From: Candidatus Bathyarchaeia archaeon | Lineage (GTDB): Archaea > Thermoproteota > Bathyarchaeia > Bathyarchaeales > Bathycorpusculaceae | Length of the DNA stretch: 64,000 bases | Assembly: GCA_049512935.1 (NCBI GenBank) | Contig: JBEKWR010000012.1 | Location: 1 to 64,000 of the forward strand | Direction of reading: 5' to 3' | Shown: piece after piece, positions 3,595 through 55,694 of the stretch | Layout of the letters: every line of letters begins with the position of its first letter | Position numbering within the stretch: position 1 is the stretch's first letter | The notes under the pieces: model-generated | What the model was told of the DNA's origin: nothing | What the model saw: only the letters and a program-made list of their open reading frames with translations | Database searches by the model: none | Program-made: the position numbers and the translations under genes

Positions 3595-6500
3595 ATGAAA
3601 GTTAAAGTTTTGAAGCTTTTAAGTTTAATACTTATCCTGATTTTTGCTTCGACGGTAATCACAGAAATACACGCCCTCAGCGTTATCAGCACGCTACCGT
3701 TAGGCAGTGGAAACGACCCTCTTTGCGTGGCTTATGATTCTGGCATGGGTGAGATATTCGTAACCAACAACGTCGCTAGCACGGTCTCGGTCATATCCGA
3801 CAGCACCGATGCCGTGGTTGCAACTATCACTTTGCCCTCGGGATGCGAGCCTTTTGGCCTCGCTTATGACTCCGGCATGGGTGAGATATTCGTAGCCGAA
3901 GAGCACGCAAGCACCGTCGCAGTCATAAGTGACACCACTAACGCCGTGGTTGCAACCATAGTCGTAGATATCGATCCCATAGGCGTCGCTTACGATTCTG
4001 GCAAAGGCGAAATTTTCGTAGCCAATTATGGCGACGATGACGTTTCGATTATCAATGATAGAACTAACCACGTTGTTGCAACGGTGGGTGTGGGAACCGA
4101 CCCTGAGATGATAGCATATGATTCTGGCATGGGCGAGTTATTCGTAGCCAATCAGGTTTACGGCACCGTCTCAGTCATAAATGACACCACAAATGCCGTG
4201 ACTACCTTCTCTACTGGGCAGAGTGGACCCTGGGGTGTCGCTTATGACTCCGGCATGGGCGAGATATTCGTAACCAACAATGGCGCCCACACCGTCTCGG
4301 TCATAAATGACACCACCAACGCTGTGACTGCAACCGTGTCCTTGCCTTTTAACAGCGCTCCAAGATGCATTGCGTATGATTCTGGCATGGGCGAATTATT
4401 TGTAGTGGAGAATTACTTTGGAGCTGGAATAGGTAATGTTCAGGTCATAAATGACACCACCAACGCTGTGACTGCAACCGTTACCGTGGGAAACGAGCCG
4501 ACAGGCATCGCTTATGACCCTGTGTGGGGCGAACTGTTCGTAGCCAACACTGAGGACGGCACAATCTCGATCATACCGGACGGCAACACTGTTGATTGGC
4601 CAATGTTCCACCATGACTCCTACCACACAGGCAACACAATTGCCACAGGTCCAATAACATGCCAGCTCCAATGGAAAGCAGCAACAAACGCCTTTGTCCT
4701 CTCTTCTCCTGCAGTTGCCGGTGGCGTCGTCTACGTGGGCTCAGCTGACTATAAAGTGTATGCTTTCAGCGCCGCAACAGGAACGCAGTTATGGAGCTGT
4801 ACAACAGGAGGCCCGATAGACTCTTCTCCTGCAGTCGCTGGCGGCGTGGTCTACATAGGCGCATCTACCGTCAACACCGGCTATGGGAATGCCCTGTATG
4901 CTTTGAACGCTACAACAGGAATACCGTTATGGACATTTCAAGCGGCGGACATGCGCTCTTCTCCAACTGTTGTCAATGGCGTGGTCTACGTAGGCTCATA
5001 TGACGATAACGTGTATGCTTTAAACGCTACTACAGGCACAAAGTTATGGAGCTACCCAACAGGCAGTGTAGTGCTTTCTTCTCCTGCGGTTGCTGGAGGC
5101 GTTGTCTACATAGGCTCGTATGACGACAACGTGTATGCTTTGAACGCTACCACAGGCACAAAAATATGGAACTACCCAACAGGCGGCGCTGTGTACTCCT
5201 CTCCCACTTTTGCGGGCGGTGTAGTCTACGTAGGCTCATTTGACCACAAAGTGTATGCTTTGAACGCCACCACAGGCACACAAATATGGAACTACCCAAC
5301 AGGCGGGTTAATAGAATCTTCTCCTGCAGTCGCCGGCGGTGCGGTTTACATAGGCTCATTTGACGATAATGTGTATGCTTTGAACGCTACCACAGGCACA
5401 CAAATATGGAACTACCCAACAGGGAATGCAGTGAATTCCTCTCCTGCTGTTGCGGGCGGCGTCGTCTACGTAGGCTCTGCTGACAAAAACCTGTATGCTT
5501 TGAACGCGGCTACAGGCGCAGAGATATGGAGCTACGCAGCAGCCAATGAAGTGGACTCTTCCCCTGCTGTTGTTGGCGGTGTAGTTTACGTAGGCTCACA
5601 AGACTCCAACGTATATGCTATTAGATCCGCTGTTGCGCCTTCTGCTCCGACGGTTTCTGTTTCGCTTGGCACGGTGGATCAGGGTCAATCTTCAACTTTG
5701 AGCGTTACCACAGACGTTGCTGGCGGCACTTCGCCGTATAGTTACCAGTGGTATGAGAACAGCGGCTCTGGATACTCTGCAGTTGGTTCCGCGACGAGTT
5801 CTGCAGCAAGCTACGTTTTCGAGACGGCGTCAGTTACCCCTGGAACGTACCAGTTTGAGCTTCAGGTTACGGACAGCGAGAACCCAGCGGTGACGGTTAC
5901 TTCCAACGTGGTTCAGGTCACCGTGAATTCCGCCTTGGTTGCCCCCACAGTGACGCCTAGTTCAGGCACGATAGATCAAGGTCAGACTAGCAGTTTGACT
6001 TCTACGGCTGTTTTGACTGGCGGCGGCGGGTATGTTTATCAGTGGATGGAGAAGGCTCCTGGCGGAAGCTATGTTGCTGTGGGTACGGGTTTGGCGAGTT
6101 TTAGTTTCGCTACTACTGGTTCTACGGCTAGGGGTGTTTGGAACTTTGAGCTTCAGGTGACCGACAACACGGGTGCAGCGGTGACTTCTTCTGCTGCGTC
6201 GGTTACGGTAAATTCTGCTCTAACTGCCCCAACAGCTTCAGCTTCCACAAGCACGGGCGACCAAGGGCAAACCATCACCTTGTTCTCCACAACTGTCTCA
6301 ACAGGGACTCCCTCATACCAGTACCTGTGGCTTCAAAAAGCACCTGGCGCTGGTTCTTACTCAACTATTAGCAGCGCAACTTCATCCAGCTACTCCTTCG
6401 TAACCTCCAGCTCTACAACCACTGGTTCTTGGAGTTTTGAGCTTCAAGTAACCGATTCAACTTCGGCATCTGTCACTTCAAACCCTGTCCCTGTAACGGT

Positions 6501-7233
6501 GAATGTTCCTCCGACCGTATCTATCTCTCCAGGATCTGCAAATTTGGTTGTTGAACAGAATCAAGTGTTTACTGCAACGGCTAGCGGCGGCACAGGAAAC
6601 TACACGTTCTATCAGTGGTATGTAAATGGGGTCTCTCAAGGCTTTCAGATGCCGCCAACCTTCACTTTTACTCCTGGCTCCGCAGGTTCTTACTCGATTA
6701 CTGCAACGGTCAGTGACAATTCAAGCATGACTTCAGCTCAATCCACTGCTGCAACAGCTACGGTTTCGGCAGCTGCAACTCCTACTCCCACTCCAGCTCC
6801 TACAACTGCGCCAACGCAGACAGCATCTCCCACTCCAACTCCGACCCCGACCCCCACGCCAAAGCAAACGGCTACTCCGTCTCCCACCGCCACCGCTTCG
6901 CCAATAGCCGCACCTATCACACTGACAACATTGGCAATCTACCTGTTGATTGTTGTCATCGTCATTGTGGTGTTGCTTCTGGCGGTCTTGTTTATGTTGA
7001 GGCGTGGCAAGAAGAAGATTGTTGCGTCGGCAGACGCCAACGGCAAGATTAACCCATCTGGAACGGTAAAAGTCAATCGGGGAAGCGACCAAACCTTTAC
7101 CATCGCCGCCAATGCAAACTACGCCATCGCCGATGTTCTGGTGGACGACAAATCAGTCGGACCTAAACCCTCATACACCTTCGCAAACGTCAAAGACGAC
7201 CACAAAATACATGCCAAATTCAAGCCAGAATAG
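3595..7233 (+). CDS. Large membrane-anchored surface protein: YVTN/YncE-like propeller, PQQ-like propeller, Ig/PKD-like domains, PT linker, TM helix, C-terminal InlB-B-repeat-like domain
   Basis: Signal peptide; 7x AYDSGMGE(I/L)FV-type repeats; 8x SSPAVAGGVVY(V/I)GS-type repeats; 4 YQW-type beta-sandwiches; TP-rich linker; hydrophobic helix then RRGKKK. Confidence 0.9.
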   Translation: MKVKVLKLLSLILILIFASTVITEIHALSVISTLPLGSGNDPLCVAYDSGMGEIFVTNNVASTVSVISDSTDAVVATITLPSGCEPFGLAYDSGMGEIFVAEEHASTVAVISDTTNAVVATIVVDIDPIGVAYDSGKGEIFVANYGDDDVSIINDRTNHVVATVGVGTDPEMIAYDSGMGELFVANQVYGTVSVINDTTNAVTTFSTGQSGPWGVAYDSGMGEIFVTNNGAHTVSVINDTTNAVTATVSLPFNSAPRCIAYDSGMGELFVVENYFGAGIGNVQVINDTTNAVTATVTVGNEPTGIAYDPVWGELFVANTEDGTISIIPDGNTVDWPMFHHDSYHTGNTIATGPITCQLQWKAATNAFVLSSPAVAGGVVYVGSADYKVYAFSAATGTQLWSCTTGGPIDSSPAVAGGVVYIGASTVNTGYGNALYALNATTGIPLWTFQAADMRSSPTVVNGVVYVGSYDDNVYALNATTGTKLWSYPTGSVVLSSPAVAGGVVYIGSYDDNVYALNATTGTKIWNYPTGGAVYSSPTFAGGVVYVGSFDHKVYALNATTGTQIWNYPTGGLIESSPAVAGGAVYIGSFDDNVYALNATTGTQIWNYPTGNAVNSSPAVAGGVVYVGSADKNLYALNAATGAEIWSYAAANEVDSSPAVVGGVVYVGSQDSNVYAIRSAVAPSAPTVSVSLGTVDQGQSSTLSVTTDVAGGTSPYSYQWYENSGSGYSAVGSATSSAASYVFETASVTPGTYQFELQVTDSENPAVTVTSNVVQVTVNSALVAPTVTPSSGTIDQGQTSSLTSTAVLTGGGGYVYQWMEKAPGGSYVAVGTGLASFSFATTGSTARGVWNFELQVTDNTGAAVTSSAASVTVNSALTAPTASASTSTGDQGQTITLFSTTVSTGTPSYQYLWLQKAPGAGSYSTISSATSSSYSFVTSSSTTTGSWSFELQVTDSTSASVTSNPVPVTVNVPPTVSISPGSANLVVEQNQVFTATASGGTGNYTFYQWYVNGVSQGFQMPPTFTFTPGSAGSYSITATVSDNSSMTSAQSTAATATVSAAATPTPTPAPTTAPTQTASPTPTPTPTPTPKQTATPSPTATASPIAAPITLTTLAIYLLIVVIVIVVLLLAVLFMLRRGKKKIVASADANGKINPSGTVKVNRGSDQTFTIAANANYAIADVLVDDKSVGPKPSYTFANVKDDHKIHAKFKPE

Positions 7234-18276: not shown

Positions 18277-19320
18277 CTAGAAGAATTTTGAGACCCTTTG
18301 AATCGCCGCAACTGTGAGTTTAGCCGAATCCTCGATGTCTTTCAGGGACAGCATACCTACTGGGCTGTGAATGTACCGTGTCGGTATCGAAACGTTCCCG
18401 CTCGGGATGCCCTGCCTCGTCAGTAAAATGCGTGCCGCGTCTGTTGAACCCATCAATCCTGTTTCAATCTGGAATGGGATTTTTTCTTCCTCCGCCGAAT
18501 CCAAAAGCCAACGAAGGACCTTCGGATGCGTAACTAAGCCAGAATCGGAAATCGTCAAGGCTGGACCTTTACCCATCTTCACGCTCGTGTCGTATTCTCT
18601 AACTCCGGGAACGTCGCCAGCTATGGTCACGTCGAGGGCTATTGCCACATCAGGGTCAACGTTGAAAGCCGCCGCGCCTGCTCCCCGCAAGCCGAGTTCT
18701 TCCTGGACTGTTCCGACGGCGTAGACTGTGCAGTCGGTGCGTTCTAAAAGTTTGAGGACTTCAACCATGGTGACGCAGCCTGCTCGGTTATCTAAGGCTT
18801 TGCCGATGACTACATCCCTGCCCAAAGGAGTATATTTGATGTCAAAACTTACCGGGTCACCAACCGCAATGCCCATGGACAGCGCGTCTTCTTTGCTTTC
18901 CGCGCCAACATCGATGAAAAGCTCGTCTGAAGAGATGATTTTTTTGCGTTCTTCTTCTTTCTGGATGTGCGGAGGTTTAGAACCGATTATCCCTGGAAAA
19001 ACCGCTTTTCTCGACATTACTGAAACCCTCTGAGCGGGTAAGATTCGGTCATCTATTCCGCCCATCTTTGCGAACTGCAAGAAGCCTTCTTTAGTGATGG
19101 TTTTAACCATCAGGCCGACCTCATCCATGTGAGCCGCAAGCATTATTTTAGTCGATTTTTCTTTGCCCTTTTTTATGGCGATAACGTTTTCAAGTCTATC
19201 TACAATTATCTCGTCTGCGTATGGCGTCATAAGCCGAATCATTAATTCTCTGACTTCGCTTTCTCTGCCCGTTACGCCACACGCGTTTGAGAGTTTCTCT
19301 AAATTCTGGTTTATGGACAA
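18277..19320 (-). CDS. M42 family (TET) aminopeptidase
   Basis: AAHMDEVG, KALDNRAG, VQEELGLRGA, ALDVT, RYIHSP. Confidence 0.94.
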   Translation of the reverse strand: MSINQNLEKLSNACGVTGRESEVRELMIRLMTPYADEIIVDRLENVIAIKKGKEKSTKIMLAAHMDEVGLMVKTITKEGFLQFAKMGGIDDRILPAQRVSVMSRKAVFPGIIGSKPPHIQKEEERKKIISSDELFIDVGAESKEDALSMGIAVGDPVSFDIKYTPLGRDVVIGKALDNRAGCVTMVEVLKLLERTDCTVYAVGTVQEELGLRGAGAAAFNVDPDVAIALDVTIAGDVPGVREYDTSVKMGKGPALTISDSGLVTHPKVLRWLLDSAEEEKIPFQIETGLMGSTDAARILLTRQGIPSGNVSIPTRYIHSPVGMLSLKDIEDSAKLTVAAIQRVSKFF

Positions 19321-19518
19321 TTGGACGCCTTCTTAGTTTTTATGGATACAACTCTGAGGTCTAACTTATTAAACAATTGCGGTTGAAAGCCTCTTGCGCT
19401 CTAACGCTTAATACAATTTAGAAAAATTTCTGCACCTTAAGCCTCTCTTTCAGGGCTATTATGGTAACTTTTAAATGCTCAACCCGCATAAAACCTATCT
19501 ACCAAGGGGTTTTTCAAA

Positions 19519-20421
19519 TTGGCAGAACAGCAACAACCACAACCAGTACCAGTTCCAGTTCCCAAAAAGATCGGAATTTTCAAATGTGGAAATATCGGGA
19601 CATCACCTTGTCTTGAGCTTCTATTGGATGAATTAGCCGATCGAAGAGACATCAAAGTTAGAACCGTGACAACAGGTTCAAAAATGGGAGCCGACGACGT
19701 TGAAGAAGCTTTGCCCAAGTTCTTTGAGTTCAACCCTGAAGTTGCAGTCATAATATCTCCCAACACTGCACTGCCCGGCCCTTCGAAGGCGCGCGACGCC
19801 GTTGCTCAAAGGAAAATCCCAGGGATCGTCATTACGGATTCTCCCGGCAAGAAGGTGAAGGGCGACATTGAAAAACAAGGCTTAGGCTATCTCATAATCA
19901 CCGGAGACCCCATGATCGGCGCGAGAAAAGAGTTCTTAGACCCAATTGAGATGGCACTTTTCAACTCAAACGTAAGCAAGGTTCTCGCAATAACCGGCGT
20001 TTACCGCATAGTCTACCAAGAAATCGACAAAGTCATCTACGCCATCGAAGCAGGTCTCACTCCGATACTGCCAAAGCTGGTCATCGACATCACGACGATA
20101 CGCGACCAAATCTTCTTCAACAACCCTTACGCAAAAGCAAAAGCCATCGCCGCCTACGCAATGGCAGAAAAACTCGCCGACATCGACGTCATGGCTTGCT
20201 TCATAGAGAAAGAAAACGAAAAATACATCCCGCTCGTAGCTGCCGCACACGAAATCGCGCAAGCCGCAGCCCGATTAGCTGAAGAGGCACGGGAAATCGA
20301 AAAGTACTCAGATGAACTCTTGAGGAAGCCGCATGCGAAAGACGGGAAGCTGAAGTACAAGACCAAGCTGATGGCTCTACCGACTTTTGACGAGGAAAGC
20401 TACAGTCAAAGCAATCTATGA
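19519..20421 (+). CDS. mtd: F420-dependent methylene-tetrahydromethanopterin dehydrogenase
   Basis: KIGIFKCGNIGTS..LELLLDE.ADR.DI, ISPN..LPGP..AR, DPMIGARKEFLDP.EMA.FN, NPYAKAKA. Confidence 0.93.
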   Translation: MAEQQQPQPVPVPVPKKIGIFKCGNIGTSPCLELLLDELADRRDIKVRTVTTGSKMGADDVEEALPKFFEFNPEVAVIISPNTALPGPSKARDAVAQRKIPGIVITDSPGKKVKGDIEKQGLGYLIITGDPMIGARKEFLDPIEMALFNSNVSKVLAITGVYRIVYQEIDKVIYAIEAGLTPILPKLVIDITTIRDQIFFNNPYAKAKAIAAYAMAEKLADIDVMACFIEKENEKYIPLVAAAHEIAQAAARLAEEAREIEKYSDELLRKPHAKDGKLKYKTKLMALPTFDEESYSQSNL

Positions 20422-20495
20422 GTTCAGCCTTTTTCTCAGTTTTCTCTTCTTTTTCAAAATTTTTTTTGGCTCGCAGGTATGGCTGATTTCCTGCG

Positions 20496-20584
20496 TATAT
20501 GGGATATATGCCAATATATGTCCAAGCCCATTTTTGTATATACCATATATAACTTTACATAGCGTATTTCGACTAAGTATATAT
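20496..20584 (+). promoter_or_regulatory. TATAT-repeat promoter/operator region upstream of the NAD(P)-Mtd fusion
   Basis: TATATG at 20496, 20505, 20515; TATATA at 20537, 20546, 20578. Confidence 0.45.
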
Positions 20585-20622
20585 CTGCCGCAGGCATTCT
20601 CAGAGATGCAGAGGTTAAGAAA

Positions 20623-22338
20623 ATGGAAACCCTCGAATTAAAACCATTAGAAAAAAAGAAACTCAACGTCTTACTGCTTGAAAAGGAATATAACGAACCG
20701 TTCTGGGTGAACGATCCGCCAGCAGGCTTGAATGCCCTAAAGGCCTTGTACAACCCTTCAGTGGGTTTCTACAAGTTCTTGGAAAACCTTGTAAGCAAAG
20801 TAAACATCGATTACGTCACTGACGAGCTAGGCCAACGCACAAAAGAAGACTTTGAAGGCACCATAACAACCGACATTTTCCGCAAAAGCAACATACCCTA
20901 CTTCGCAGTAGAAATGGACGCAGCAGCAAAAGATTACATCGGAGACGTCATCGCCACCAAAATAAAATCACGAGACGATCTCCTACAAGCCATGGACGCC
21001 CTGCCAAAGCAAAAAGACGATTCAATGGAAAAAGAATACATGATCGCTCTCGGCCAAAGCCTCCAATTTGAGATAGAAGAACATCAAGAAGAAATCAACT
21101 TCTCAATTAGAGAAAGCTGGATAACGATGGGTATTCTGAATCACGCACGGGAAATTAAAGGAAAAGAAGAAATCACCTGCCTTCACATCTGCAGTCCAGA
21201 ACACATGACTGGAATCAAGCAATTGCTTGAAACGATGAATGCCAAGGTGGAAACCGCAAAACTCTCCAAGAAAGTTATAGCTGCAAGCACAGAAGTACCG
21301 TCTTCTCAGGAGATGGAAAACTGGTTGCAATCAATCCAAATTCAAGTTAAACCAACAATGGGAAAAGCCGCGGAAGAGGCACCGTACTTGCTGTTCTACA
21401 TCGACACCGATGCGAAAGCAAGTCCATTTGACATTTGCATGGCATACGACGTGGGCTACGATGCAGTCATACCCTACGAGAATGTGAATCCGGAAGACGC
21501 AAAAAACATCACTCAAGACGCGTTGCTGTCCCGAGGACCAAAAGGTGTTAAGCACACTGCCTTCTTGATAGGCGGAAAAAACGCTGAAAGAGCTGAAGAA
21601 GTTTTCCAAGCAGTCAAAGATTCGATGTTCCCACCCTTCAAAACAAGCATAATAATTGACCCAGCAGGCGCCTACACAACAGCCGCAGCCATGGTTGCAA
21701 AAGCTGAAGATGCATTGGCAGCCAACAAGCTTGGCGAACTGAAAGACAAGACATGCGCCATCATGGGAACCGGTGCAGTCGGCCAAATAGCAGCTGTCCT
21801 TCTTGCTAAGATAGGATGCAAAGTAATGATTGCCAGCCTGAACCCGAAACGTGCTGACGGAAAAGAACATGCAGAAAGCATCGGCAAGCTCTTGGCGAAA
21901 GATCATGGAGTTCAAGTGCAAGGGATATTCGCGCCAACACCGCAGTCTAAGATAGACATAATCGAGAAAGCCGATGTAATCATGTGCGCAGGAGTTAAAG
22001 GTGTCCGCATCATCGACAAAGAAATGCTCAAAGGCGTCAAACACATGAAGGTACTCCTTGACATCAACGCTGTCCCGCCCTTCGGAGTAGAAGGAATCGA
22101 ACTCAAAGACGACATGAGAGAAATGTTGCCAGGCATATTCGTAATCGGCGCGTTAACAGTTGGCGACTTGAAGCACAAGACCGAAAAAGAAATTCTGCGA
22201 GAAGCACGAAGCAACGGCAAAGAAGTCTACAACTTCAACATAGCGTTACCGATGGCGAGAAAACTGCTGGAGAAAGACCTAATACCTGCAAAGCTGGCTA
22301 TGACGTTGAATTATCAATCGACAAAGAAACCCGCATAG
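20623..22338 (+). CDS. NAD(P)-dependent methylene-H4MPT dehydrogenase (MtdA/B/C-like) fused to an unknown ~250-aa N-terminal domain
   Basis: From ~aa 255: SPFDICMAYDVGYD.VIPY, SRGPKG...T..LIGG, MFPPFK.S..IDPAGAYTTAAAMVA, Rossmann GTGAVG, DINAVPPFG.EG, IGAL.VG.LK. Confidence 0.85.
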   Translation: METLELKPLEKKKLNVLLLEKEYNEPFWVNDPPAGLNALKALYNPSVGFYKFLENLVSKVNIDYVTDELGQRTKEDFEGTITTDIFRKSNIPYFAVEMDAAAKDYIGDVIATKIKSRDDLLQAMDALPKQKDDSMEKEYMIALGQSLQFEIEEHQEEINFSIRESWITMGILNHAREIKGKEEITCLHICSPEHMTGIKQLLETMNAKVETAKLSKKVIAASTEVPSSQEMENWLQSIQIQVKPTMGKAAEEAPYLLFYIDTDAKASPFDICMAYDVGYDAVIPYENVNPEDAKNITQDALLSRGPKGVKHTAFLIGGKNAERAEEVFQAVKDSMFPPFKTSIIIDPAGAYTTAAAMVAKAEDALAANKLGELKDKTCAIMGTGAVGQIAAVLLAKIGCKVMIASLNPKRADGKEHAESIGKLLAKDHGVQVQGIFAPTPQSKIDIIEKADVIMCAGVKGVRIIDKEMLKGVKHMKVLLDINAVPPFGVEGIELKDDMREMLPGIFVIGALTVGDLKHKTEKEILREARSNGKEVYNFNIALPMARKLLEKDLIPAKLAMTLNYQSTKKPA

Positions 22339-22352
22339 GGTTCTTTCTTTTT

Positions 22353-23366
22353 TTACGTAGAAACTTTGAACGCGTGGTTGACCGTAACTTCCGCGATGTT
22401 TGCTGCATAGAAAGCAAGTCTCTTTATGTCTTCCCTAATTGAGCATACCGCGCAGATTAACTCGGGTTTCTTGTTGCTAATGAAAGTTGTGTTTGCGATT
22501 TCTTGATCTAATTTTTCAATTCTCTTGGTCTGTTTCATTATTTCAACTGAAAAGTCAAGGTCGTGTTGGAAGAAAGCGTTGACGGCCTTAATGTATAAGT
22601 CGACTACCTCCGTTCCTTCATCGACCATAAGCTCCAACAAGTTGCTGGGAATCGTTTCTCCAATTCCATCTATCATAATGATGTGTTTGGCTATGTCTGC
22701 CACGTAATCTGCAGCGTGCTCGATTAACACGGAGAGATACTGGTAGTCCATGCAGTCAACCGGATCCAAACGCAGTTCATTGGCTAAAACTGGACTTTGA
22801 GCCGCTTCCCGAAGTATTCTGAGAATCAGGAAGTGGAATTGGTCCACATCATCGTCAAGTGACAAAACGGATTTTGCAAGTGAGATGTCATTAGTCTTCA
22901 AAGCGGTGAAGACATCCTCACACATGGAGTAGGAGATCAGATGCATTCTTTGCACGGCTTGGTCAAGCGAAGCTTTTGATTCGTCAGTTAACGTTTGAAG
23001 GTAAACTCCTCTGGAATCCGACTCCATTATTCGCATGTAAAGCCTGCCAGCGATGTACCGTATGGCTTTCCTCTGGGGGACGGAGAGGATTTTTTCTGCT
23101 ATTAGCGTGATTCCAGAGTACCCGTTCAAAAATGACCCAATGATTTTTTGGATTATTAATGCTTCATCCTCGTTGCTTCCGATCTTAATTGTTGTCTCTT
23201 TGGGGGGCGACTTTTTCTCTGCCCCCGGATAAACAACTAATGAACGGTCACGTTGGATTGCGTACGAAACCACGTCTCCCTTGTTTAGTTCGTTTAGAGT
23301 CATCCAGTTTTTTGGAAGAGAAATCACCATTGAGGATCTGCCTAAAGACATTATTCTACGTTCCAT
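22353..23366 (-). CDS. phoU: Archaeal AbrB-PhoU family regulator
   Basis: RRIMSLGRSSMVISLPK.W AbrB domain; PhoU repeats with DDDVD and IEHAADY; ATG at 23366 preferred. Confidence 0.88.
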   Translation of the reverse strand: MERRIMSLGRSSMVISLPKNWMTLNELNKGDVVSYAIQRDRSLVVYPGAEKKSPPKETTIKIGSNEDEALIIQKIIGSFLNGYSGITLIAEKILSVPQRKAIRYIAGRLYMRIMESDSRGVYLQTLTDESKASLDQAVQRMHLISYSMCEDVFTALKTNDISLAKSVLSLDDDVDQFHFLILRILREAAQSPVLANELRLDPVDCMDYQYLSVLIEHAADYVADIAKHIIMIDGIGETIPSNLLELMVDEGTEVVDLYIKAVNAFFQHDLDFSVEIMKQTKRIEKLDQEIANTTFISNKKPELICAVCSIREDIKRLAFYAANIAEVTVNHAFKVST

Positions 23367-23399
23367 AACATGGCCTCCAACATTTCCAAGCAATGATGA

Positions 23400-23437
23400 G
23401 TTAATACCGCACATATTTTAATATATACTGTATTAAC
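23400..23437 (-). promoter_or_regulatory. Inverted repeat enclosing the TATA-like box of the phoU-like gene
   Basis: GTTAATAC (23400-23407) ... GTATTAAC (23430-23437); contains AGTATATAT on the minus strand. Confidence 0.45.
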
Positions 23438-23531
23438 AGCGGAAATTTGCCTTGGCCCACCCGTCTTGCATTTAACGCAGCTAGCTCTCAAAGCAGCCAA
23501 TGGACGCGCAAAAAAGAATTCCCAAGCTGGG

Positions 23532-33992: not shown

Positions 33993-34055
33993 TTCACGTC
34001 GATTCCACCGTTGACATAGGTATTTTTTTAAGCAGCTAATAGCTTAGCTATGCAT

Positions 34056-34670
34056 ATGCCCTATAAGTTTACCTTCGACCTGTCAAAGGTCCCGCTTTTC
34101 TTCTTCACCGAAATTGCGACGGTAAGTTACCAGAAGGGCATGCACAAAACAGTAATTAAGAAATTGCAAGAAATCATTTTAAGGTTCAGAATACAAGAAG
34201 CCACTGGACTCAACCTTTCTGATTCCTTAGTTTTGCTTCAGGATCTGATTGATTTACAAGCAGTAAACATGATAGAGCGAGGCAAATTCTTGCAGACCAA
34301 GAAAAGAGCGCTCTTTCTTTCTCACTGCACAAGAAAGTACCTTGATGGTCGTTGCAAAGCAGTTTTTGACTCAAATATCCCGTCCTATTCATGCGCTCAC
34401 TGTTCAGAAGACTGCCTAGTCAACCAGTCTGACCACTTAGCCCGAGCGAAAGGTTATGACGTTTACGTGGTGCCTGGTGGTTCCTGCGTTCCCAAGATTC
34501 TGAAAAGTACGCGCTACGAGGGTGTGGTGGGCATTGCGTGTGGAGAAGAAATAAAAGTGTTGGGTCCACTTTTGGAAGGTATGGATGTTGCTGGGCAAGC
34601 TATACCGTTGCTAAAGAATGGCTGTGCAAACACTATTTTTAACATGGAAACCCTCGCGAAAGTTCTTTAG
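34056..34670 (+). CDS. DUF116 domain protein (copy 1)
   Basis: FLSHC.R....C.A........C..CS..C, V.GGS, GIAC..E, PLLKNGC.NT. Confidence 0.85.
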   Translation: MPYKFTFDLSKVPLFFFTEIATVSYQKGMHKTVIKKLQEIILRFRIQEATGLNLSDSLVLLQDLIDLQAVNMIERGKFLQTKKRALFLSHCTRKYLDGRCKAVFDSNIPSYSCAHCSEDCLVNQSDHLARAKGYDVYVVPGGSCVPKILKSTRYEGVVGIACGEEIKVLGPLLEGMDVAGQAIPLLKNGCANTIFNMETLAKVL

Positions 34671-34851: not shown

Positions 34852-35469
34852 ATGCCCTATAAGTTTACTTTCGACATTTCAAAGGCGCCGCAACACTTTT
34901 TCATAGAACTCGCCGTTGTAAGCAACCAAATGGGCATGCAGAAGGTTTTTGAGAAGACCTTACAGGAACTAATCAGAAAATTCAAAATTCAGGAAGTTAC
35001 AGGACTCAACATCCAAGACGCCGCAGTGTTAATTCAGGACCTCCTTAAGATGCAAACTTTGAATCTGATACAAAAACAGGAATTCTTGCAATCCAAAAAA
35101 AGGGCTTTGTTCCTTCCCCACTGCTGCAGGAAATACATGGATAGTCGATGTCAAGCCGTTTTTGAGCCAGCTTTGAGCTCTTATGTTTGTGCTCATTGCT
35201 CACCCGACTGCTACGTCAACAAGGCCGAACGCATTGCCAAAGAAAAAGGGTACGATGTCTACGTTTTATCTGGCGGTTCTTGTGTGCCTAACATTTTGAA
35301 GCAGAAGAACTACGAGGGCATCGTGGGCGTTGCATGCGGTCCAGAAGTAGTTATGTCCGGGGAAAAATTGAGCAGCATGGGCATAGCTTGGCAATCTGTC
35401 CCGTTGCTTAAAAACGGCTGCGCAAACACCATTTTTAACATGGAAACACTAGTAAAAGTCCTCTCCTGA
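34852..35469 (+). CDS. DUF116 domain protein (copy 2, tandem paralog)
   Basis: Same motifs; first 17 nt identical to copy 1. Confidence 0.85.
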   Translation: MPYKFTFDISKAPQHFFIELAVVSNQMGMQKVFEKTLQELIRKFKIQEVTGLNIQDAAVLIQDLLKMQTLNLIQKQEFLQSKKRALFLPHCCRKYMDSRCQAVFEPALSSYVCAHCSPDCYVNKAERIAKEKGYDVYVLSGGSCVPNILKQKNYEGIVGVACGPEVVMSGEKLSSMGIAWQSVPLLKNGCANTIFNMETLVKVLS

Positions 35470-46481: not shown

Positions 46482-47528
46482 TCACTCTTTGTAGAGGAAG
46501 CGTTTTCCGCTAGCCATGTCGTCTAGTTTTTGCCTGCCTACGACCCCGTGTTTTCTCAGGATTTCTCGGTGGACATGTGCCTGCTCGATTCGCGCTATGA
46601 ACAGCTTGTTCATGGTGAAGAAGTCTGCAATTAGACTTTTGAAGGCTGTTTTGCCTTTTTTTGCCTTGCTGTACTCGTACCTGAACACGCTTCTTTCGAA
46701 ATAGGCGAGGATGATGTATGGCCATAAAAAGTACGGCGCTATCTTCAGGTACATGGCGTGAGTGTTGAGCACGCTGAGCCTGAGAAGCCTGTCAGTCATG
46801 GCACTACCAGTTCGGCTGCTCTTATGCACGGCTTTGACCTGCGGAACAAAAAGCAGCTTGTAACCTGCACAAGTCATTCGAAACCCGAAATCCACGTCGT
46901 CGTAATTGAAAATGAAGGTGCTGTCGAATCCGCCGACGCCGAGAAGCGCGTCTTTTCTGATAAGCATAAACGCGCCTCTTAGGTACGGAATCTCCTCTGC
47001 CTTCAAGTCATGAAGCTCGCTCACACACATACCTTGGGACCTGCAGTAAGGGTTGTACCTGTTTTTGTCAACCTTTTTTATGTAGTCGCCCGCGGAGTCG
47101 ACGGTTTCTAAGTCAAGTTTGACGAGTAAAGGCTGAATTCCTTGGCACTTATTAGCGTGCAAAAGTTCAAGCAGAGGCGCTATGTCGTCCAGAATCATTG
47201 TGTCGTCATCGGCAAACAGAAGAATTGGTGAACCCGCCAGAACGGCGCCGACATTTCGCCCCAACGCTAGCCCCCTGTTGTCTTCCTTTTTCATCAGCAC
47301 AAGCCTTGTTTTCACAAGGTTTGGCTTTCCCATTAAGTAGGCGCGCAAATTTTGGCTGATGTTTTGTTCTGAATCGATCGAGTCAACCAGAAGGATTAGT
47401 TCGTATTTTACGGTTAGCCTGCTTGTCGAATCAATTAAGGCGGTGACGTATTGGTTTGGGAAGCTTGGGAAAACGACGATGATGCTTACTGCTGCCTGCC
47501 CCTCAACATGATGATCAACAGTAAACAC
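46482..47528 (-). CDS. Glycosyltransferase family 2
   Basis: GLALGRNVG, FADDD, GAFMLIR, GGFD..F....DDVD.GFR. Confidence 0.9.
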   Translation of the reverse strand: MFTVDHHVEGQAAVSIIVVFPSFPNQYVTALIDSTSRLTVKYELILLVDSIDSEQNISQNLRAYLMGKPNLVKTRLVLMKKEDNRGLALGRNVGAVLAGSPILLFADDDTMILDDIAPLLELLHANKCQGIQPLLVKLDLETVDSAGDYIKKVDKNRYNPYCRSQGMCVSELHDLKAEEIPYLRGAFMLIRKDALLGVGGFDSTFIFNYDDVDFGFRMTCAGYKLLFVPQVKAVHKSSRTGSAMTDRLLRLSVLNTHAMYLKIAPYFLWPYIILAYFERSVFRYEYSKAKKGKTAFKSLIADFFTMNKLFIARIEQAHVHREILRKHGVVGRQKLDDMASGKRFLYKE

Positions 47529-47859
47529 TTTCGAAATGTACGATGCCCCACGAGGTTTTGCTTTTGCTTTAGATAGCGACGCGTTTTATGTGTATTGGTT
47601 TGCTTTTGGGTATTAATGTTTCTGTGAAGAGACGCCAGGGAAGCTAAAAATTAATTAAGGGTGCAGTTGAGGTTAACATTAATTTACAAAAGTTATACTG
47701 GTGAATCGGTGGGTAACGCCGCGTTTCTGGTTAAAAGTTTAGGAAGAAACCCTGCGAGTGCGGTGAAAATGGCTTAGAATGCAAGTGTTTTCCGATTGCG
47801 GCAATTCTTAAATGGATAAGTTGATGAAAAAAATCTTGGATCAAATTCAGCATGGAAGG

Positions 47860-49398
47860 CTATTTCTGCAGTGCGTAAAGTGCCGCGTCCAGGATTAGGC
47901 TGTTCGTGTTAGTGCCAAGTTCATTAACTATGTTTCCAGAAGTGTCTGCGCCGTCAAAGTAACCGTTTGTAGGGGTAGGACAAATGTTCTCGATGAAGAC
48001 AGTCAGACTTCGGGCGAAAGTTGTGTTGTAAAGAGCTAAGTAACTGAAAGCCACTTTGTTGTAAAGAACGGCAGGGTTAGTGTAATCCAGTGTGTATGGG
48101 TAGCTGTTCGTTACTTCCCATGGCACGTCGTGAGGACCAACAACCCAGCCGTACGCCCAACCGTTTGACGGCGTTTGTCCTTCACTTGGAGCAATGAATT
48201 TGCCAGTTTGATCGTAATAAGCTTCATTTGCAGCGTACACTTTTGCCATCAAGTTTGTTAACCCGCTGGGGACGCTGCTAAATTCAAAAACTGACCTGAT
48301 AAGCGGTTCGTTACCAATCAAAGCTTCAGGCAACGAAACACCCGACACTGAAATAGTCGGAGAATTAAGAATGTTATTCAAGATGTCGCCCGGCACGTTA
48401 CCAACCTGTTGAGACCAAAAATCTGCAAAGCCGCTGTCGACGAAATAAGAGTACGTATTGTTTGAGGTACTATCAGCTTGGATGATGGGTAGTAAAGCCG
48501 CAAAGTTCGAAGTCCCGTTAAAAACGATGTTATTAATCTCTGGTGCTAGGCTGGGATCAAAAACTCTGAGGTTGTTTAGTCCAACGAATAATGCTCCTAA
48601 ATCAGCCGTGTCAGCAGCGAAAGTCGCATTGTCCGAATTTTCATGGTAGTCTGTGCCGTTGGTCGCATCGTAGAACCAGAATGGATAACCAGTAGTTTCG
48701 TTAATCGGGCGGTCTGCCAAGAAAGTTAAAATCTTATCAAATCTTGCGTTGGCGTCAGCACTGGTTTCCAAACCTATTTTCTCCGCGTCGATAATTGCTT
48801 GGATGTACGCGCCTAAATCCCAATCTGTGAAGGCTTCAAAGCCTTGTCCGCCAGCGTATGGAAGACCCGTGTTAGGGTCAACACCTATGCCAGGCTGGAA
48901 AAACGCCCAAGCATTGGCTGCCACATCGTGCCAGACGGTGCTGTTGATGATCGGTGAAGTTGCGATTAAGCCTGGAGGCTTGTTCGCATTGCTGCTTGCC
49001 TTAGTTGCGTCACTTGCTACAGTGGTTACTTTAGAAATGCTCGGTGCCTTGTTGTGAGAGCCAGAGCCGGATTTCGGCACGGAGGAAGTTGTTGAGTTGC
49101 CTTGGGTAATGGCGGTGACTTCACTCTTAGTTGGAGCTGGCTTGTATAGAATGACAAAGCTTGAAATCAGCACGACGGCGATAACCACAAGGGCCATCAC
49201 GAATTTCGCCTTTTTGTTAAATTGCCAATTAATTTGTCTCAAGAAAGGTTTTTTGACGTCAAGTTCAAGGTGGGTCCGTAACAAAAATAGCGTAGCTGGT
49301 CGAGTTGAACTGGTTTTCTTAGAATTAATAGACCTATGCATTATCATGACACACACTATACGCTTTAAGTGAGTGGCAAAGCCCCCTTCATCGAGCAT
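47860..49398 (-). CDS. DUF3131-like membrane-anchored protein, (alpha/alpha)6 glycoside hydrolase-like; true start probably later
   Basis: TM plus Ser/Thr linker, then AWAFF..GVDPNTGLP, TDWDLGAYI, P...YD, D.ADLG.L. Confidence 0.7.
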   Translation of the reverse strand: MLDEGGFATHLKRIVCVMIMHRSINSKKTSSTRPATLFLLRTHLELDVKKPFLRQINWQFNKKAKFVMALVVIAVVLISSFVILYKPAPTKSEVTAITQGNSTTSSVPKSGSGSHNKAPSISKVTTVASDATKASSNANKPPGLIATSPIINSTVWHDVAANAWAFFQPGIGVDPNTGLPYAGGQGFEAFTDWDLGAYIQAIIDAEKIGLETSADANARFDKILTFLADRPINETTGYPFWFYDATNGTDYHENSDNATFAADTADLGALFVGLNNLRVFDPSLAPEINNIVFNGTSNFAALLPIIQADSTSNNTYSYFVDSGFADFWSQQVGNVPGDILNNILNSPTISVSGVSLPEALIGNEPLIRSVFEFSSVPSGLTNLMAKVYAANEAYYDQTGKFIAPSEGQTPSNGWAYGWVVGPHDVPWEVTNSYPYTLDYTNPAVLYNKVAFSYLALYNTTFARSLTVFIENICPTPTNGYFDGADTSGNIVNELGTNTNSLILDAALYALQK

Positions 49399-49646
49399 AC
49401 CACGCTATTGTATGAACAATAAATTATTTAGGTTAATGGTGGATTTAAGATTATGCTTCAAATATTCTTCGGTAACTGAATGATTTCAAACTTACTTGAT
49501 GCGTTTTTATGCATAATATGCAGCATTCACAGGCGGCGCTTGCAGTCATGAAGCCCCTTTTTTGAATGGTTTTCTTCAAAACTAGTTTCCGCAAGCAGAA
49601 TAAGTAGGAACAGCTTGGTTTACGCCGCTGTTTGAGTTCAGGTTTG

Positions 49647-50885
49647 CTAAGCGGTTTGGGCGTGGGGCACCTTGTCGTATGCTTGCCTTTCTGCTTCAGC
49701 CACTTTTTCCCAGACATGTTGAGAAGCGAAACTCAACGCTTGTTTAGAAAGCTCAGATCTAAGGTCTTCGTCGCCGATGATTTTTAATGCTTCAGAAGCC
49801 ATTAGCTTGCAGTTTCCAACGGGAACCGTCTTAACCAAGCCAGCTGGGAAATTCAAGGTTATCGCAGGTATCTCGTAGGCTACGACTGGCGTGCCACAGG
49901 CTAATGTTTCTAGGACAACAAGCGGGAACGCGTCGTGGCTGCTTGGGTACACCAAGACTTTGGCTGCCTTCACAAGCGAGTATAATTCTGCCTCTTTAAG
50001 GAATCCTTTGTAGTCCAAGAATCCGCCAACCCCCCTCTGCGTGACCAAACTTTCATACCGATTCTGAAACGCCGCTGAGCCGAAGCGCCCGGCAACTGAA
50101 AACTTCAAATCCGGCTTCTTTTTTGCCATTTCCATGACTATTTCAGGCAAGTCGTATATTCCCTTTTCAGGCGCAAGCCTGGAAAAGAAAAAAGCATCTG
50201 GCTTTTCCTTGGAGGGCTTTATTTTCCGCATTTTCTCGTTGTCAACACCTACGCCTGGGTGCAGAACAAGCATCCTGCTTTTCCAGCCTCCAAGGTAATG
50301 CTTGGTGTCAAGTTCAATTGATGCGCTGACAGCTAAGGGAACAGTGGATTTCAACGCTCGTGCGGCAAGCGCGTAAAACCGTGAATACAAGGCAAACATG
50401 TAAAGCCTGCGTTGAAACCCTACTGGTCGCCACTTGGTTGAGGCGTAGGGTGGAAAAAGAGGAAGCTGAAAAACGCACGTCCACGGCAAAGAAAGCTTCT
50501 TCGCGGCGAAGTAGGCTTCCAGAAGAAAATCGGTTTTTTCGTGTTCCGAAACTATGAGTTCCACTCGTTCTTTTTTGGCTATGTCAGCTATCACGTTGGC
50601 GGTTTCAAAAATCGAAAAGTAGTCAAGCGCCGCTCGGCTGGCACTTCTGAAGTACCGCTCGTACATGACGTTAGGTCGTTTGACACTGTAAATCTTGTGT
50701 TTAAGAAGTTTGGCGCTGCCGTCGCGCTTCATCGTCTTCCAAATAAAATCGTCCACAACGATTATCGGCTCAACGCCATATTTGCCAATTCTCTTAAGAA
50801 CCTCAAAGCTTCTTCTGTCTCCGCCCGTCCCCGTTCTCAGAGGGTTAGCTAGGTACAAGACTTTCATCAAGCCCCAACTCCTCAA
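49647..50885 (-). CDS. Glycosyltransferase family 4
   Basis: GTGGDRR, FSRL.PEKG, PS.HDAFPLVVLETLACGTPVV. Confidence 0.9.
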   Translation of the reverse strand: MRSWGLMKVLYLANPLRTGTGGDRRSFEVLKRIGKYGVEPIIVVDDFIWKTMKRDGSAKLLKHKIYSVKRPNVMYERYFRSASRAALDYFSIFETANVIADIAKKERVELIVSEHEKTDFLLEAYFAAKKLSLPWTCVFQLPLFPPYASTKWRPVGFQRRLYMFALYSRFYALAARALKSTVPLAVSASIELDTKHYLGGWKSRMLVLHPGVGVDNEKMRKIKPSKEKPDAFFFSRLAPEKGIYDLPEIVMEMAKKKPDLKFSVAGRFGSAAFQNRYESLVTQRGVGGFLDYKGFLKEAELYSLVKAAKVLVYPSSHDAFPLVVLETLACGTPVVAYEIPAITLNFPAGLVKTVPVGNCKLMASEALKIIGDEDLRSELSKQALSFASQHVWEKVAEAERQAYDKVPHAQTA

Positions 50886-50962
50886 CCTTTTGAGCGCTGC
50901 AGCGAGGTTTTGAGCGTTTCCGCCATGCGCCGAATAAGCATAGTCACTTAGTCGCGTTCTGA

Positions 50963-52114
50963 CTAGATATTATTTTCTGTCTGCTGCATCAGCCATTGCA
51001 CGTGCGCCCATATTTTCTCGCGGAAAACTTTAGGTTGCAAGATGGAAATCTTTTCCCACAATTCGCTTCTCTGCTTCTCCCATGCAGCGGCGTCAGCGTC
51101 TGAAGGGTCCGCCCAACGCGCTATTTTTTCTTTGAGTTCGTCATACGTTTGCCACCTGAACTCTTCGGGAATAAACTCGCCTGTTCCGCCGCTCTTATGA
51201 ACCAACGTTACGCATCCGCTTGCTAAGCCTTCGATCGGCGAAATTCCGAAGTGCTCGCCCTCCATTAAATGGCAGTAAACGCGGGATTCGCGGTACAGTT
51301 TCACCAGTTCCGGGCTTGGCACGTTCGGCTTAACAGCGTAGTTAGCTGGAAGATCTTTTGAGAACGAGTCAAACCATTCCTGCTCGGTTTCTCTTAAGCC
51401 GCCGACGCTTAGGAAGTTGAACTGGGGAAGGTCCACTGCCAACTGCTTCATCAACTCGTGCCTTTTCTGGGGAATGAAGCGTCCAACGTAGATTACTCTT
51501 TTAAGCCTGTCTTTCAGCGGCGTGGCGCTCCAGAACGGCTCCGTGTCAACGGGCGGGTAAGCAACGATGGGTTCGGGTATGCCGTCTCTGCCCCAGTATT
51601 TTTCAACCATTCCCTTAGTGTACTCGCTGTTGCAGAATACCATGTCGAGTTTGCTGATGTCTTTGTCAAGCCACCTCTTGTAAAGCCACAGGTAGGCTTT
51701 TCTGCGCATTCCAGAGTTCGCGTAGGAGTGATGTATCTCGGGAAAATGAACGTATGCGAGGTTCTTCTTTTTTTCATCAAACAGCGCCGACTCAAAAGCC
51801 GTCATGGTCTGGGTTGAGAACGCGCAGTCGTAATCTAAACCTTTGATTTTTTTGGTCAGCCCGATGATTCTGCTGCGCCTCTTGTAGACCGTGAACGGGG
51901 GCTTAACATCTATTCTTTTCCCTAAACTGTGAACGACGATTTCAGCTGGCAATTTTTCACCCACGATCTGAGCATAGCGTTCGGGGTCAAAATCAAACGT
52001 CAGCAACTCCACGTGCTCGCCGTGCTCGATTAAGGATTTGATGATGTGGTGGCAGACTCTTTCGCCGCCGCCGTAAATGTCCAAGTTCGGATGAATTACC
52101 AGGAATCTTGCCAG
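50963..52114 (-). CDS. GT4 glycosyltransferase, Alg11-like
   Basis: IHPNL..YGGGERV, YVHFP, NSEYT, YPPVD, EHFGIS.IE..ASG....H.SGG; CTG start at 52114 restores the first strand. Confidence 0.85.
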   Translation of the reverse strand: MARFLVIHPNLDIYGGGERVCHHIIKSLIEHGEHVELLTFDFDPERYAQIVGEKLPAEIVVHSLGKRIDVKPPFTVYKRRSRIIGLTKKIKGLDYDCAFSTQTMTAFESALFDEKKKNLAYVHFPEIHHSYANSGMRRKAYLWLYKRWLDKDISKLDMVFCNSEYTKGMVEKYWGRDGIPEPIVAYPPVDTEPFWSATPLKDRLKRVIYVGRFIPQKRHELMKQLAVDLPQFNFLSVGGLRETEQEWFDSFSKDLPANYAVKPNVPSPELVKLYRESRVYCHLMEGEHFGISPIEGLASGCVTLVHKSGGTGEFIPEEFRWQTYDELKEKIARWADPSDADAAAWEKQRSELWEKISILQPKVFREKIWAHVQWLMQQTENNI

Positions 52115-52206
52115 ATGCCTCGCCCTCTCTTCAGTACAAATCGGCTTTTTATCTAATCAAGATTTCTCTCTTCCCCGCCATTGCTTGCCGCCTCGGTTTT
52201 ACCTTG

Positions 52207-53730
52207 CTAATCCGCCGCGTTAGACTCTCCCGCCGACCCATATTTTAAACGAGTTCTTCTTCTGCTGACCCAGTTCATAACTGGAATAAGCGGCTTCTTC
52301 AGCGATTGGGGCAAGGCGTCTTTAAACTCCCTCTGCAAGCCTAAGCGAATGGCGACCTTGCCTCTCCACGTCAAGGGAACGTAGTAGCGTGTTATCGGAT
52401 AGCTGACGAACCCGTTGCTTTCTTTAAACCTGTCAAGCGAGGGATGATTTCCTATTCGCCCGTACATGAGCCACCGTTGCCCTTTGGAGGCGCAGACTTC
52501 AACCGCCTTGGCGAGAAGCGCGTTGTTTAAGGCTTTATCCCAGTGCTTCTGCATCGACAGTATCTGCGAAACAACGGCTATGTTGTCGCCGTACAGCATT
52601 TGAATGAAGCCGACAAGCTCCCCGTCAAGGTACGCGCCGATGAACGTGGAGTTTTTCGCACCCGCGTACATGTTGCCAGCGACGGTTTCCAGTGGTTCGC
52701 CGTAGTGTGAGAAGGCTCTCTCCTGCCTTATCGGGGTTTCATTGTAGATCTTCGATATGCCCTGAGCAAACTGGTCGTTTGGCTCAGCAACAGTTACTTT
52801 TACGCCGTTTTTCTCAGCGCGCCTTACCATGTTGCGGGTCTTCTTTCCAACGCCGCTCCACCAACTCTGATAGTCTTTTACTTCAAGCAAGGCAACGTTG
52901 TCTTCGCTTTTTACCCAGTTGCTCGAAGGGTTAGGGATCGGGCAGCACCATTTCCTCTCCAGGAAAGTGAAGACGTCAATGTCTCTCTCGGATAAATTCT
53001 CAAGGAACGCTTCCGTTGGAACCACATCTCTTTCGTACTCTCTTACGTCGTGCGCCGTTCTTGCGAAAGCGTTCTTCCTTACCCGTAAAGTTTCAAGTTC
53101 CTTATCCGTCTCCAAAATGTCCTTCAGCACGTCATAGAAGGGTCCTCTGCCGCTTCTCTTCCCCTCCTTGAACAGCCATTCAGGATGCATGGACAAAACA
53201 AAGTTTTGGTTAATCCACGCTTCGGCTTCTTTTTTGCCGCCTTCAAAACCTTTCTGAAAACGTATGGTGTCCAGACTGAACGTGGTGAAATCATGGAAAG
53301 ATTTCAGCGGGAAATCCTTAGGCACGATTGCTTGCTTTTGCCCAAGTTTTCGACCCCAAAGAAGCTGAGCGAACAGCCGCTTGGTCCCGTGGATGGTGTA
53401 GTACTTGATTGTTCTGTTGGTTTCGTTCTCCAGAATTTTCCATTCCCTGTACGGGTCCGTAGCAACGTGCAAAGCCACCTCATGCCTCTCAGGGTTAAGC
53501 AAGTCGAGCAGCTTCTTGTCTGGAATCGTGTACGGAGTGAAAAACCAGTAAGCCATGACGTGCCTTGGCGATTGATTAATCATCTTGGCAATAACCCGCG
53601 CGTTTTGCAAGTAGCCTCGGCTTTTTCTCTTTTTGATGCCTAACGCTATGTAAAGAAAACTCTTAGCCCTTGACGGGTAGGGGTAATCAACATCCAACCT
53701 TAGCCTAATCAACGCCTGTTCATTTGCCAA
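52207..53730 (-). CDS. Fusion of a polysaccharide deacetylase-like (CE4/NodB) domain and a GNAT/FemAB-like domain
   Basis: N-part LRLDVD, VALH, TIHG, MHPEW; C-part KKTRNMVRRAEK.GV, GAYLDGELVG, NNALL..AV, LDRFKESNGF. Confidence 0.7.
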   Translation of the reverse strand: MANEQALIRLRLDVDYPYPSRAKSFLYIALGIKKRKSRGYLQNARVIAKMINQSPRHVMAYWFFTPYTIPDKKLLDLLNPERHEVALHVATDPYREWKILENETNRTIKYYTIHGTKRLFAQLLWGRKLGQKQAIVPKDFPLKSFHDFTTFSLDTIRFQKGFEGGKKEAEAWINQNFVLSMHPEWLFKEGKRSGRGPFYDVLKDILETDKELETLRVRKNAFARTAHDVREYERDVVPTEAFLENLSERDIDVFTFLERKWCCPIPNPSSNWVKSEDNVALLEVKDYQSWWSGVGKKTRNMVRRAEKNGVKVTVAEPNDQFAQGISKIYNETPIRQERAFSHYGEPLETVAGNMYAGAKNSTFIGAYLDGELVGFIQMLYGDNIAVVSQILSMQKHWDKALNNALLAKAVEVCASKGQRWLMYGRIGNHPSLDRFKESNGFVSYPITRYYVPLTWRGKVAIRLGLQREFKDALPQSLKKPLIPVMNWVSRRRTRLKYGSAGESNAAD

Positions 53731-55616: not shown

Positions 55617-55694
55617 CTACTGTAACTCTTTTCGTATTAATGTTATCTTTCCAAAGAACAATTCTGCCAGAGAAAAGCCACGCTGAAAAACGCC

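Follow-up and report, generated by a model that had tools for sequence, protein, structure and literature searches.

Why would an archaeon keep, next to each other, two unrelated enzymes for the same step of one-carbon (C1) metabolism? The question is raised by a window of 64,000 nucleotides (the whole stretch of DNA analysed here, on contig C12 of the 2.30-Mb Bathyarchaeia genome G000, which is in 49 contigs and 93% complete). In it mtd, the gene for the F420-dependent methylene-tetrahydromethanopterin (H4MPT) dehydrogenase Mtd, is followed on the same strand by a long gene related to the NAD(P)-linked dehydrogenase MtdA (gene 2) and then by a convergent gene for a regulator of mixed AbrB and PhoU type. 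Both enzymes would interconvert methenyl- and methylene-H4MPT. We favor the following answer, and on the sequence evidence give it an even chance: under regulation of its own, the long enzyme serves as an accessory to Mtd and not as a substitute for it, and it probably links the C1 pool carried on H4MPT with NAD(P). We read it as an accessory because it has its own conserved promoter, because the AbrB-PhoU gene stands alongside it and because it occurs almost exclusively with Mtd. If both enzymes were active, F420H2 and NAD(P)+ would necessarily exchange hydride by way of C1-H4MPT, without this thereby being the purpose of the enzyme; by analogy with a known couple of dehydrogenases, such an exchange is chemically plausible.

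Two samples of genomes were combined, 26 relatives and 61 genomes drawn evenly from the class, with 4 genomes common to both. The MtdA-like gene comes in two sizes in them. The long form (frames of 567–614 amino acids, aa) is present in 11 genomes, 10 of which also have Mtd; the short form (frames of 255–333 aa) is present in 20, and none of these has Mtd. It is therefore reasonable to conclude that the short enzyme replaces Mtd, whereas the long enzyme accompanies it. Short proteins of this type, some 300–333 aa long and found in Bathyarchaeia and in other archaea, share the catalytic module of the long enzyme at 37–51% identity and differ from it both in their genomic company and in lacking its N-terminal domain (hereafter N-domain): the N-domain profile gave no match in any of the five short-form genomes tested, and the positive controls matched in five out of five. 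Replacement in place is seen within one genus. In the genus-mate G003, the slot between the genes for M42 peptidase and diaminopimelate (DAP) aminotransferase, which holds the three-gene cassette in our genome, is occupied by a 324-aa short gene, 37% identical. Besides this lone MtdA-like gene, that slot (L143:7076-8050, contig C1 of G003) has a 124-aa open reading frame (ORF) without family.

The three ORFs named in a preliminary description of this DNA (mtd, an MtdA/B/C-like gene and a convergent AbrB-PhoU gene) are present where it had placed them, and its assignment of the enzymes to the F420 type and the MtdA type was upheld by Pfam, NCBIfam and matches to solved MtdA structures. The mtd product reaches 386.8 bits with PF01993 (MTD) in the Pfam scan (cut-off 25; profile positions 2–273 of 274) and 383 bits with the NCBIfam equivalog NF002162 (cut-off 297). 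By these profiles, with both curated cut-offs exceeded, gene 1 is a full-length canonical member of the Mtd family. In the product of gene 2, Mpt_N is found at 97.1 bits (cut-off 27) over residues 268–348, followed by Rossmann-type matches from Pfam. Residues 255–548 align with residues 4–287 of solved MtdA (6tlk, 6tge, 1lu9) at E-values from 1.7e-34 to 4.6e-34, and with a family profile the match to the MtdA-type module reached 3.4e-65. The Rossmann GTG..G motif and other family motifs are invariant across 32 sequences, with G382, T383, G384 and G387 invariant or nearly so. A single genome, then, encodes two methylene-H4MPT dehydrogenases with different predicted hydride partners, the long enzyme being predicted to use NAD(P) and to take H4MPT as its substrate.

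The preliminary description was right about the MtdA-like identity of the second enzyme and missed its architecture. Instead of the single-module size (~290 aa) of the MtdA type, the product of gene 2 has 571 aa, about twice the size of MtdA, owing to a conserved extra domain of ~250 aa at its N-terminus. Homologues of the whole protein number 120 among the matches listed, all of them 520–611 aa long with a query coverage of 91–100%; on these alignments, the fusion of a ~250-aa domain with an MtdA-type module is real and conserved. The structures 1lu9, 1lua, 6tge and 6tlk (287–303 aa), which are those of MtdA, the NADP-dependent methylene-H4MPT/tetrahydrofolate (H4F) dehydrogenase of the methylotroph Methylobacterium extorquens, have in common with the long enzyme the Mpt_N substrate domain, the Rossmann domain and the invariant family motifs. 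Unlike them, the long enzyme is archaeal and has its own conserved putative operator and a neighboring regulator, and its cofactor and pterin specificities are predicted only. A predicted complex of the long protein with Mtd, made from two alignments, scored 0.25 against a mark of 0.32, a value that counts neither for nor against binding. Full-text literature searches (subscription journals and supplementary files being outside their scope) turned up no paper that describes the N-domain fusion, the pairing of the genes, the long/short split or the cis element discussed below.

The gene order is conserved in much of Bathyarchaeia. Relatives of the long protein were collected with their surroundings, 77 loci in all, of which 68 had enough upstream DNA for the mtd test and 71 could be tested downstream; a search of this kind favors relatives of the query, a bias that is smaller in the two genome samples. 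Of the 68 loci, 54 have mtd as the direct upstream neighbor (46 with it on the same strand, 8 with it divergent), and 14 are without it. The AbrB-PhoU gene follows in convergent orientation in 65 of the 71. With such frequencies on both sides, the three-gene arrangement is more than chance. The spacer between mtd and gene 2 has a median of 107 bp (44 loci in which both genes were scored full-length, with mtd on the same strand), and the adjacency is kept down to ~50% protein identity and through inversion. Three loci with a Bathyarchaeia-type cassette (L001, L060 and L076) sit in bacterial bins (Limnocylindrales, Sulfotelmatobacter and Acidoferrum) and are probably mis-binned contigs.

The N-domain is a rare one. 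Residues 1–~250 of gene 2 match no Pfam or NCBIfam family, and of 1.84 billion representatives scanned in full by HMMER with residues 1–254, only 65 reached E <= 0.001. When 31 of these 65 relatives were scanned with Pfam, Mpt_N was found in 14, the other 17 (193–265 aa) being without any family; a PFIN match in one homologue was disregarded, since its 24.2 bits are below cut-off. One protein (P0158) has the reversed order, with the MtdA-like module first and the N-domain last. Searching with the stand-alone version of the domain led to 57 loci, nearly all from Asgard archaea, and in 54 of them an MtdA-like gene lies directly 3′ of the second N-domain copy. F420-type mtd was found in the fetched flanks of none of the 57, and AbrB-PhoU in one. 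Each of the five Asgard genomes reached in this way has mtd, never beside the locus; the distance is ~65 and ~330 kb on the two chromosomes that are whole. The N-domain is tied to archaeal MtdA-like genes, being fused to them in Bathyarchaeia and fused, adjacent or duplicated in Asgard archaea. Judged by these gene arrangements, the link between the two is old and arose more than once. Tandem N-domain copies stand ahead of the MtdA-like gene in the Asgard loci (L086–L142), one Asgard chromosome (G026:C1) carries four copies (1493809-1495121, 1514832-1515398 and 786804-787382), and in one Bathyarchaeia genome (G080:C22:6914-8342) a stand-alone copy lies directly upstream of the fused gene.

To judge by their flanking signals, mtd and gene 2 look separately transcribed, gene 2 from its own predicted promoter. 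Several runs of 4–8 T follow the stop codon of mtd, in a part of the spacer that is not conserved among relatives, and this T-rich stretch may be an archaeal terminator signal. Farther along the spacer there is a 49-bp element, composed of GTATATA-like boxes ~10 bp apart and a TTCGAC, which ends 38 nt 5′ of the gene 2 ATG. The alignment of the element covers 48 of 48 loci, some of them at 43–55% protein identity and some without mtd, and has 13 invariant columns; a 22-nt core is present at <=5 mismatches in 61 of the 77 loci. mtd itself is without the element. The last box is a likely TATA box and the boxes upstream of it a putative operator or activator site, and most aligned rows show a motif of GAGG/AGG type at the Shine-Dalgarno position. 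Two other interpretations of the element were rejected: a regulon-wide operator, as a 21-nt window version of the core occurs only once in the 2.3-Mb genome at <=4 mismatches; and a structured RNA, as RNAalifold gave 0 pairs and Rfam had no match at E <= 1 over positions 19300–23500. The T-runs 3′ of mtd and the separate promoter element of gene 2 count against the interpretation given in the preliminary description. The RNA evidence consists of contigs from one metatranscriptome run (share of words 0.06), and transcript level, strand and co-transcription are outside what they can show. Thirteen RNA contig pieces fall on parts of all three genes, and one of them, of 201 nt, is identical to mtd.

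The regulator combines a marginal AbrB/MazE-type N-terminus (PF04014, 24.8 bits against a cut-off of 24.7) with two PhoU stretches (64.1 bits). Since phoU_full reaches only 42.6 of the required 130.25 bits, the protein is not orthologous to bacterial PhoU. Matches of its homologues in tblastn begin at residues 17–19, which suggests that the true start is probably Met17, at ~23366. A GTATATAT box at 23420–23427 on the minus strand, 6 nt 5′ of the first ATG of the ORF, is probably the TATA box of this gene. From synteny, AbrB-PhoU is a candidate binder of the 49-bp element. We hypothesize a control of the link between the C1 pool and NAD(P) at two levels, in which the N-domain would act as a gate on enzyme activity and the operator as a gate on transcription.

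What else the genome holds sets the frame for this proposal. Ftr (two copies), Mch (361 bits), a full CdhABCDE operon, one FrhB-like gene and CofD (358.6 bits) are present, while Hmd, FolD, MetF, Mer and CofG/CofH were not found in this 93%-complete genome; a match to FolD turned out to be shikimate dehydrogenase inside a shikimate operon. Because Ftr, Mch and Mtd are present and FolD and MetF were not found, the C1 carrier should be of the H4MPT type. Canonical Fno (TIGR01915) was likewise not found in this genome, its best match being 71.7 bits with a cut-off of 149.8. This match, a 192-aa Fno-like ORF, was set aside, being closer to the structure 2raf (106 bits) than to the Fno structure 1jax (52.7 bits). 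With canonical Fno, Hmd, FolD and MetF not found, no alternative route was detected in this genome. Mer and MetF both having gone undetected, the conversion of methylene-H4MPT to methyl-H4MPT is left without an assigned enzyme. As to the synthesis of FO, CofG is above cut-off in none of 26 genomes (this one and 25 relatives) and CofH reaches 24.7 bits here, while CofD is present in 18 of the 26 including this one; CofD without FO synthase suggests salvage of FO or F420, or a novel route. Some side observations belong here. The CdhABCDE operon lies at G000:C4:80244-87308 (L162); the genus-mate G013 has Mer ~10 kb from CdhC; G016 has Mtd and a true Mer with no CofD match; and beside intact mch, in divergent orientation, there is a Mch-like fragment of 55 residues with an in-frame TAA (G000:C2:25184-25348).

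The features of the cassette are collected in Table 1. Housekeeping genes stand on either side of it: RtcB, archease, adenylate kinase and M42 peptidase on the upstream side, and on the downstream side a diaminopimelate-lysine operon. The rest of the window includes two tandem DUF116 paralogues (34050–34670 and 34852–35469), a 1212-aa PQQ/beta-propeller protein (3595–7233) and a long glycosyltransferase cluster (46482–58142).

Table 1. Genes, domains and predicted signals of the three-gene cassette, in positions of the window.
Feature	Position	Strand	Size and basis
mtd (methylene-H4MPT dehydrogenase of the F420-dependent kind)	19519-20421	+	300 aa; PF01993 and NF002162
T-rich stretch directly 3′ of the mtd stop codon	20422-20460	+	sequence reading; possible archaeal terminator signal
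Conserved 49-bp element 5′ of gene 2	20536-20584	+	alignment of 48/48 loci
GAGGT, Shine-Dalgarno-like	20611-20615	+	7 nt 5′ of the gene 2 ATG; sequence reading
Gene 2 (long MtdA-like), whole ORF	20623-22338	+	571 aa
Gene 2, N-terminal domain (residues 1-~250)	20623-21372	+	outside curated families; possibly a remote TraB/ChaN-like fold
Gene 2, MtdA-type module (residues 255-571)	21385-22338	+	Mpt_N and solved MtdA matches
AbrB/SpoVT-type and PhoU-domain regulator gene	22353-23414	-	353 aa, convergent; PhoU and MazE/AbrB-type matches

Several observations weigh against the accessory reading, and they concern the genes, the genomes and the N-domain. Since the promoters are separate, mtd and gene 2 need not be co-expressed, and no RNA contig bridges the spacer between them (an uncovered spacer by itself proves nothing). 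The conserved adjacency for which the preliminary description had proposed a survey stands in much of Bathyarchaeia, in the 54 of 68 loci given above, and is not universal: of the 10 sampled genomes with both genes, 5 have them adjacent and 5 on different contigs, and none of the 5 Asgard genomes has them side by side. The long form occurs once without Mtd, in G019 (92% complete), the sole exception, and four relatives have Mtd without any MtdA-like gene. The co-occurrence counts are also not independent, because 13 of the 20 short-form genomes come from one genus. The check on the presence of fno, suggested at the outset as well, cuts both ways: no canonical Fno here and Fno above cut-off in only 2 of 26 relatives on the one hand, and on the other G013, which has the gene pair and a true Fno in one genome. 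As for the enzyme itself, the preference for NADP would follow from two sequence features, an invariant Arg410 and no acidic residue after strand beta-2. The full-length model has a low-confidence linker at residues 247–251, and with a pTM of only 0.56 the placement of the domains is not confidently predicted.

The fold of the N-domain belongs to the same side of the balance. The AlphaFold2 model of the domain is confident (pLDDT 90.2), and Foldseek found nothing in the PDB at E <= 0.001, its best rows being KaiC/RecA with a TM-score of 0.28. A PDB profile search gave C-terminal module matches only, among the 60 matches listed, and a wide VIA search with the N-domain was dominated by the helical hairpin 97–167. 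Superposition on ChaN (2g5g), over residues 13–258, has a Z of 8.3, within the range that the tool calls common or noise (root-mean-square deviation 4.4, 152 aligned residues). With TraB proteins from Bathyarchaeia genomes, hhalign gave a probability of 51% and an E-value of 1.5e-4 over 154 columns, and an Atlas lead for TraB-type similarity scored 0.80. A remote TraB/ChaN-like origin is possible, then, as a weak fold assignment. The domain resembles TraB/PrgY/GumN and ChaN in the order of motifs, in several polar residues and in the alpha/beta core that superposes on ChaN. It differs from them in an inserted long helical hairpin (residues 100–177) and in the want of both a direct hidden Markov model (HMM) match and the first GxxH, with scores in the uncertain range. 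PF01963 (TraB/PrgY/GumN) had no HMM match to the N-domain in Pfam scans or in the search of its own genome. The hhalign match begins after the GxxH motif (G17 and H20 in the TraB alignment) and leaves it uncovered, and where TraB has GxxH the first strand of the Bathyarchaeia N-domains has an invariant E20-K21-E22-Y23-N24-E25. Five polar residues that are invariant in TraB have counterparts (E68, R72, D99, R163 and H194) showing little or no variation among 32 Bathyarchaeia sequences. With the Asgard copies included, few polar residues stay conserved, and only L82, W166 and I167 reach 90%.

Against this background, other explanations of the pair have to be considered. The main role of the two enzymes could be the exchange F420H2:NAD(P)+ itself, in place of Fno, making NADPH or, in reverse, supplying F420H2 for Mer. 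In its most ambitious version, Mtd and the MtdA-like enzyme with the N-domain would together be a regulated oxidoreductase working through C1-H4MPT and replacing Fno in Bathyarchaeia and Asgard archaea, with the N-domain as sensor, gate or docking site and the 49-bp element and AbrB-PhoU as the switch. The scarcity of canonical Fno speaks for such a role, together with the resemblance of the 192-aa ORF to 2raf instead of Fno, the nearly constant company of the long form and Mtd and an adjacency that survives inversion in the 8 divergent loci. The Hmd and Mtd couple, taken up below, is a precedent. Standard potentials are about -390 mV for methenyl/methylene-H4MPT, -340 to -360 mV for F420 and -320 mV for NADP, which makes the flow from F420H2 to NADP+ favorable. 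A dedicated transhydrogenase is harder to reconcile with separate promoter and terminator signals for its two genes, with G013, where Fno and the pair coexist, and with the four relatives that have Mtd and neither Fno nor an MtdA-like gene. Nor are the genes neighbors in half of the ten sampled genomes with both or in the Asgard genomes, and the supply of F420 is itself uncertain, because FO synthase was not found. We consider this explanation unlikely, and equally its ambitious version. The two could also alternate, as switchable isoenzymes not active together, Mtd serving reductive Wood-Ljungdahl flux and the long enzyme a C1 flux in the oxidative direction, with NAD(P)H as its product. The independent and highly conserved predicted promoter/operator of the long gene, its accompanying regulator, the want of the element at mtd and the single occurrence of the core in the genome would all be expected, and NADP-dependent MtdA runs oxidatively in methylotrophic bacteria. 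Alternation leaves unexplained why the short forms fully replace Mtd (0 of 20 with it) and the long form is almost never alone (1 of 11), and we hold it to be quite improbable.

The N-domain could instead be a second catalytic activity, as in a bifunctional enzyme of the FolD kind, for instance a hydrolase such as methenyl-H4MPT cyclohydrolase. Its remote similarity to TraB and ChaN and the five nearly invariant polar residues in Bathyarchaeia would suit a catalytic domain. The genome already has Mch, the first GxxH of TraB is without counterpart and outside the hhalign match, PF01963 itself gives no match and few polar residues keep their conservation once the Asgard copies are added, so that we see only a slim chance for this explanation. 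Slimmer yet is the chance that the genes are neighbors by inheritance alone, the two enzymes being functionally unlinked. The loci do come from related genomes, mtd is missing beside 14 of the 68, and in the even class sample only 2 of the 6 long-form genomes have the genes adjacent. Against this, the adjacency is kept down to ~50% protein identity and through inversion, and the pattern of co-occurrence at genome level is independent of adjacency.

In known biology a close counterpart is that of Hmd and Mtd in hydrogenotrophic methanogens, two methylene-H4MPT dehydrogenases with different hydride partners, which as a couple reduce F420 with H2 via catalytic methenyl-H4MPT (PMC3087415, section 9.3). 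The preliminary description had invoked this cycle as precedent, and the section cited bears it out. The difference is that the partner here would be NAD(P) and not H2; no Hmd was found in this genome, and the coupling is inferred. Gene 1 is of the same family as methanogen Mtd, in a host that is non-methanogenic and has CofD without a detected FO synthase, and its partner gene encodes an NAD(P)-type enzyme assigned to the same step. Fno/NpdG catalyzes the net reaction that would be open to the pair, as a single enzyme and without a C1 mediator.

Most members of Bathyarchaeia and Asgard archaea, abundant groups both, are uncultured, and reconstructions of their carbon metabolism draw on genes of this kind. 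The annotation "methylene-H4MPT dehydrogenase" hides three states in these lineages: F420-dependent Mtd alone, a short NAD(P)-type enzyme replacing Mtd, and Mtd together with a long NAD(P)-type enzyme, fused to the extra domain and under separate regulation. The electron carriers by which the methyl branch is fed or drained depend on the state of the lineage, which also bears on the balance of NADPH and F420H2 in genomes without detected Fno. The locus also offers a family of domains, so far uncharacterized, whose enzymatic partner is fixed, along with a sharply delimited cis element of 49 bp and a candidate regulator. If true, a regulated C1-H4MPT oxidoreductase system would be a previously unrecognized coupling of redox pools in the archaeal Wood-Ljungdahl pathway.

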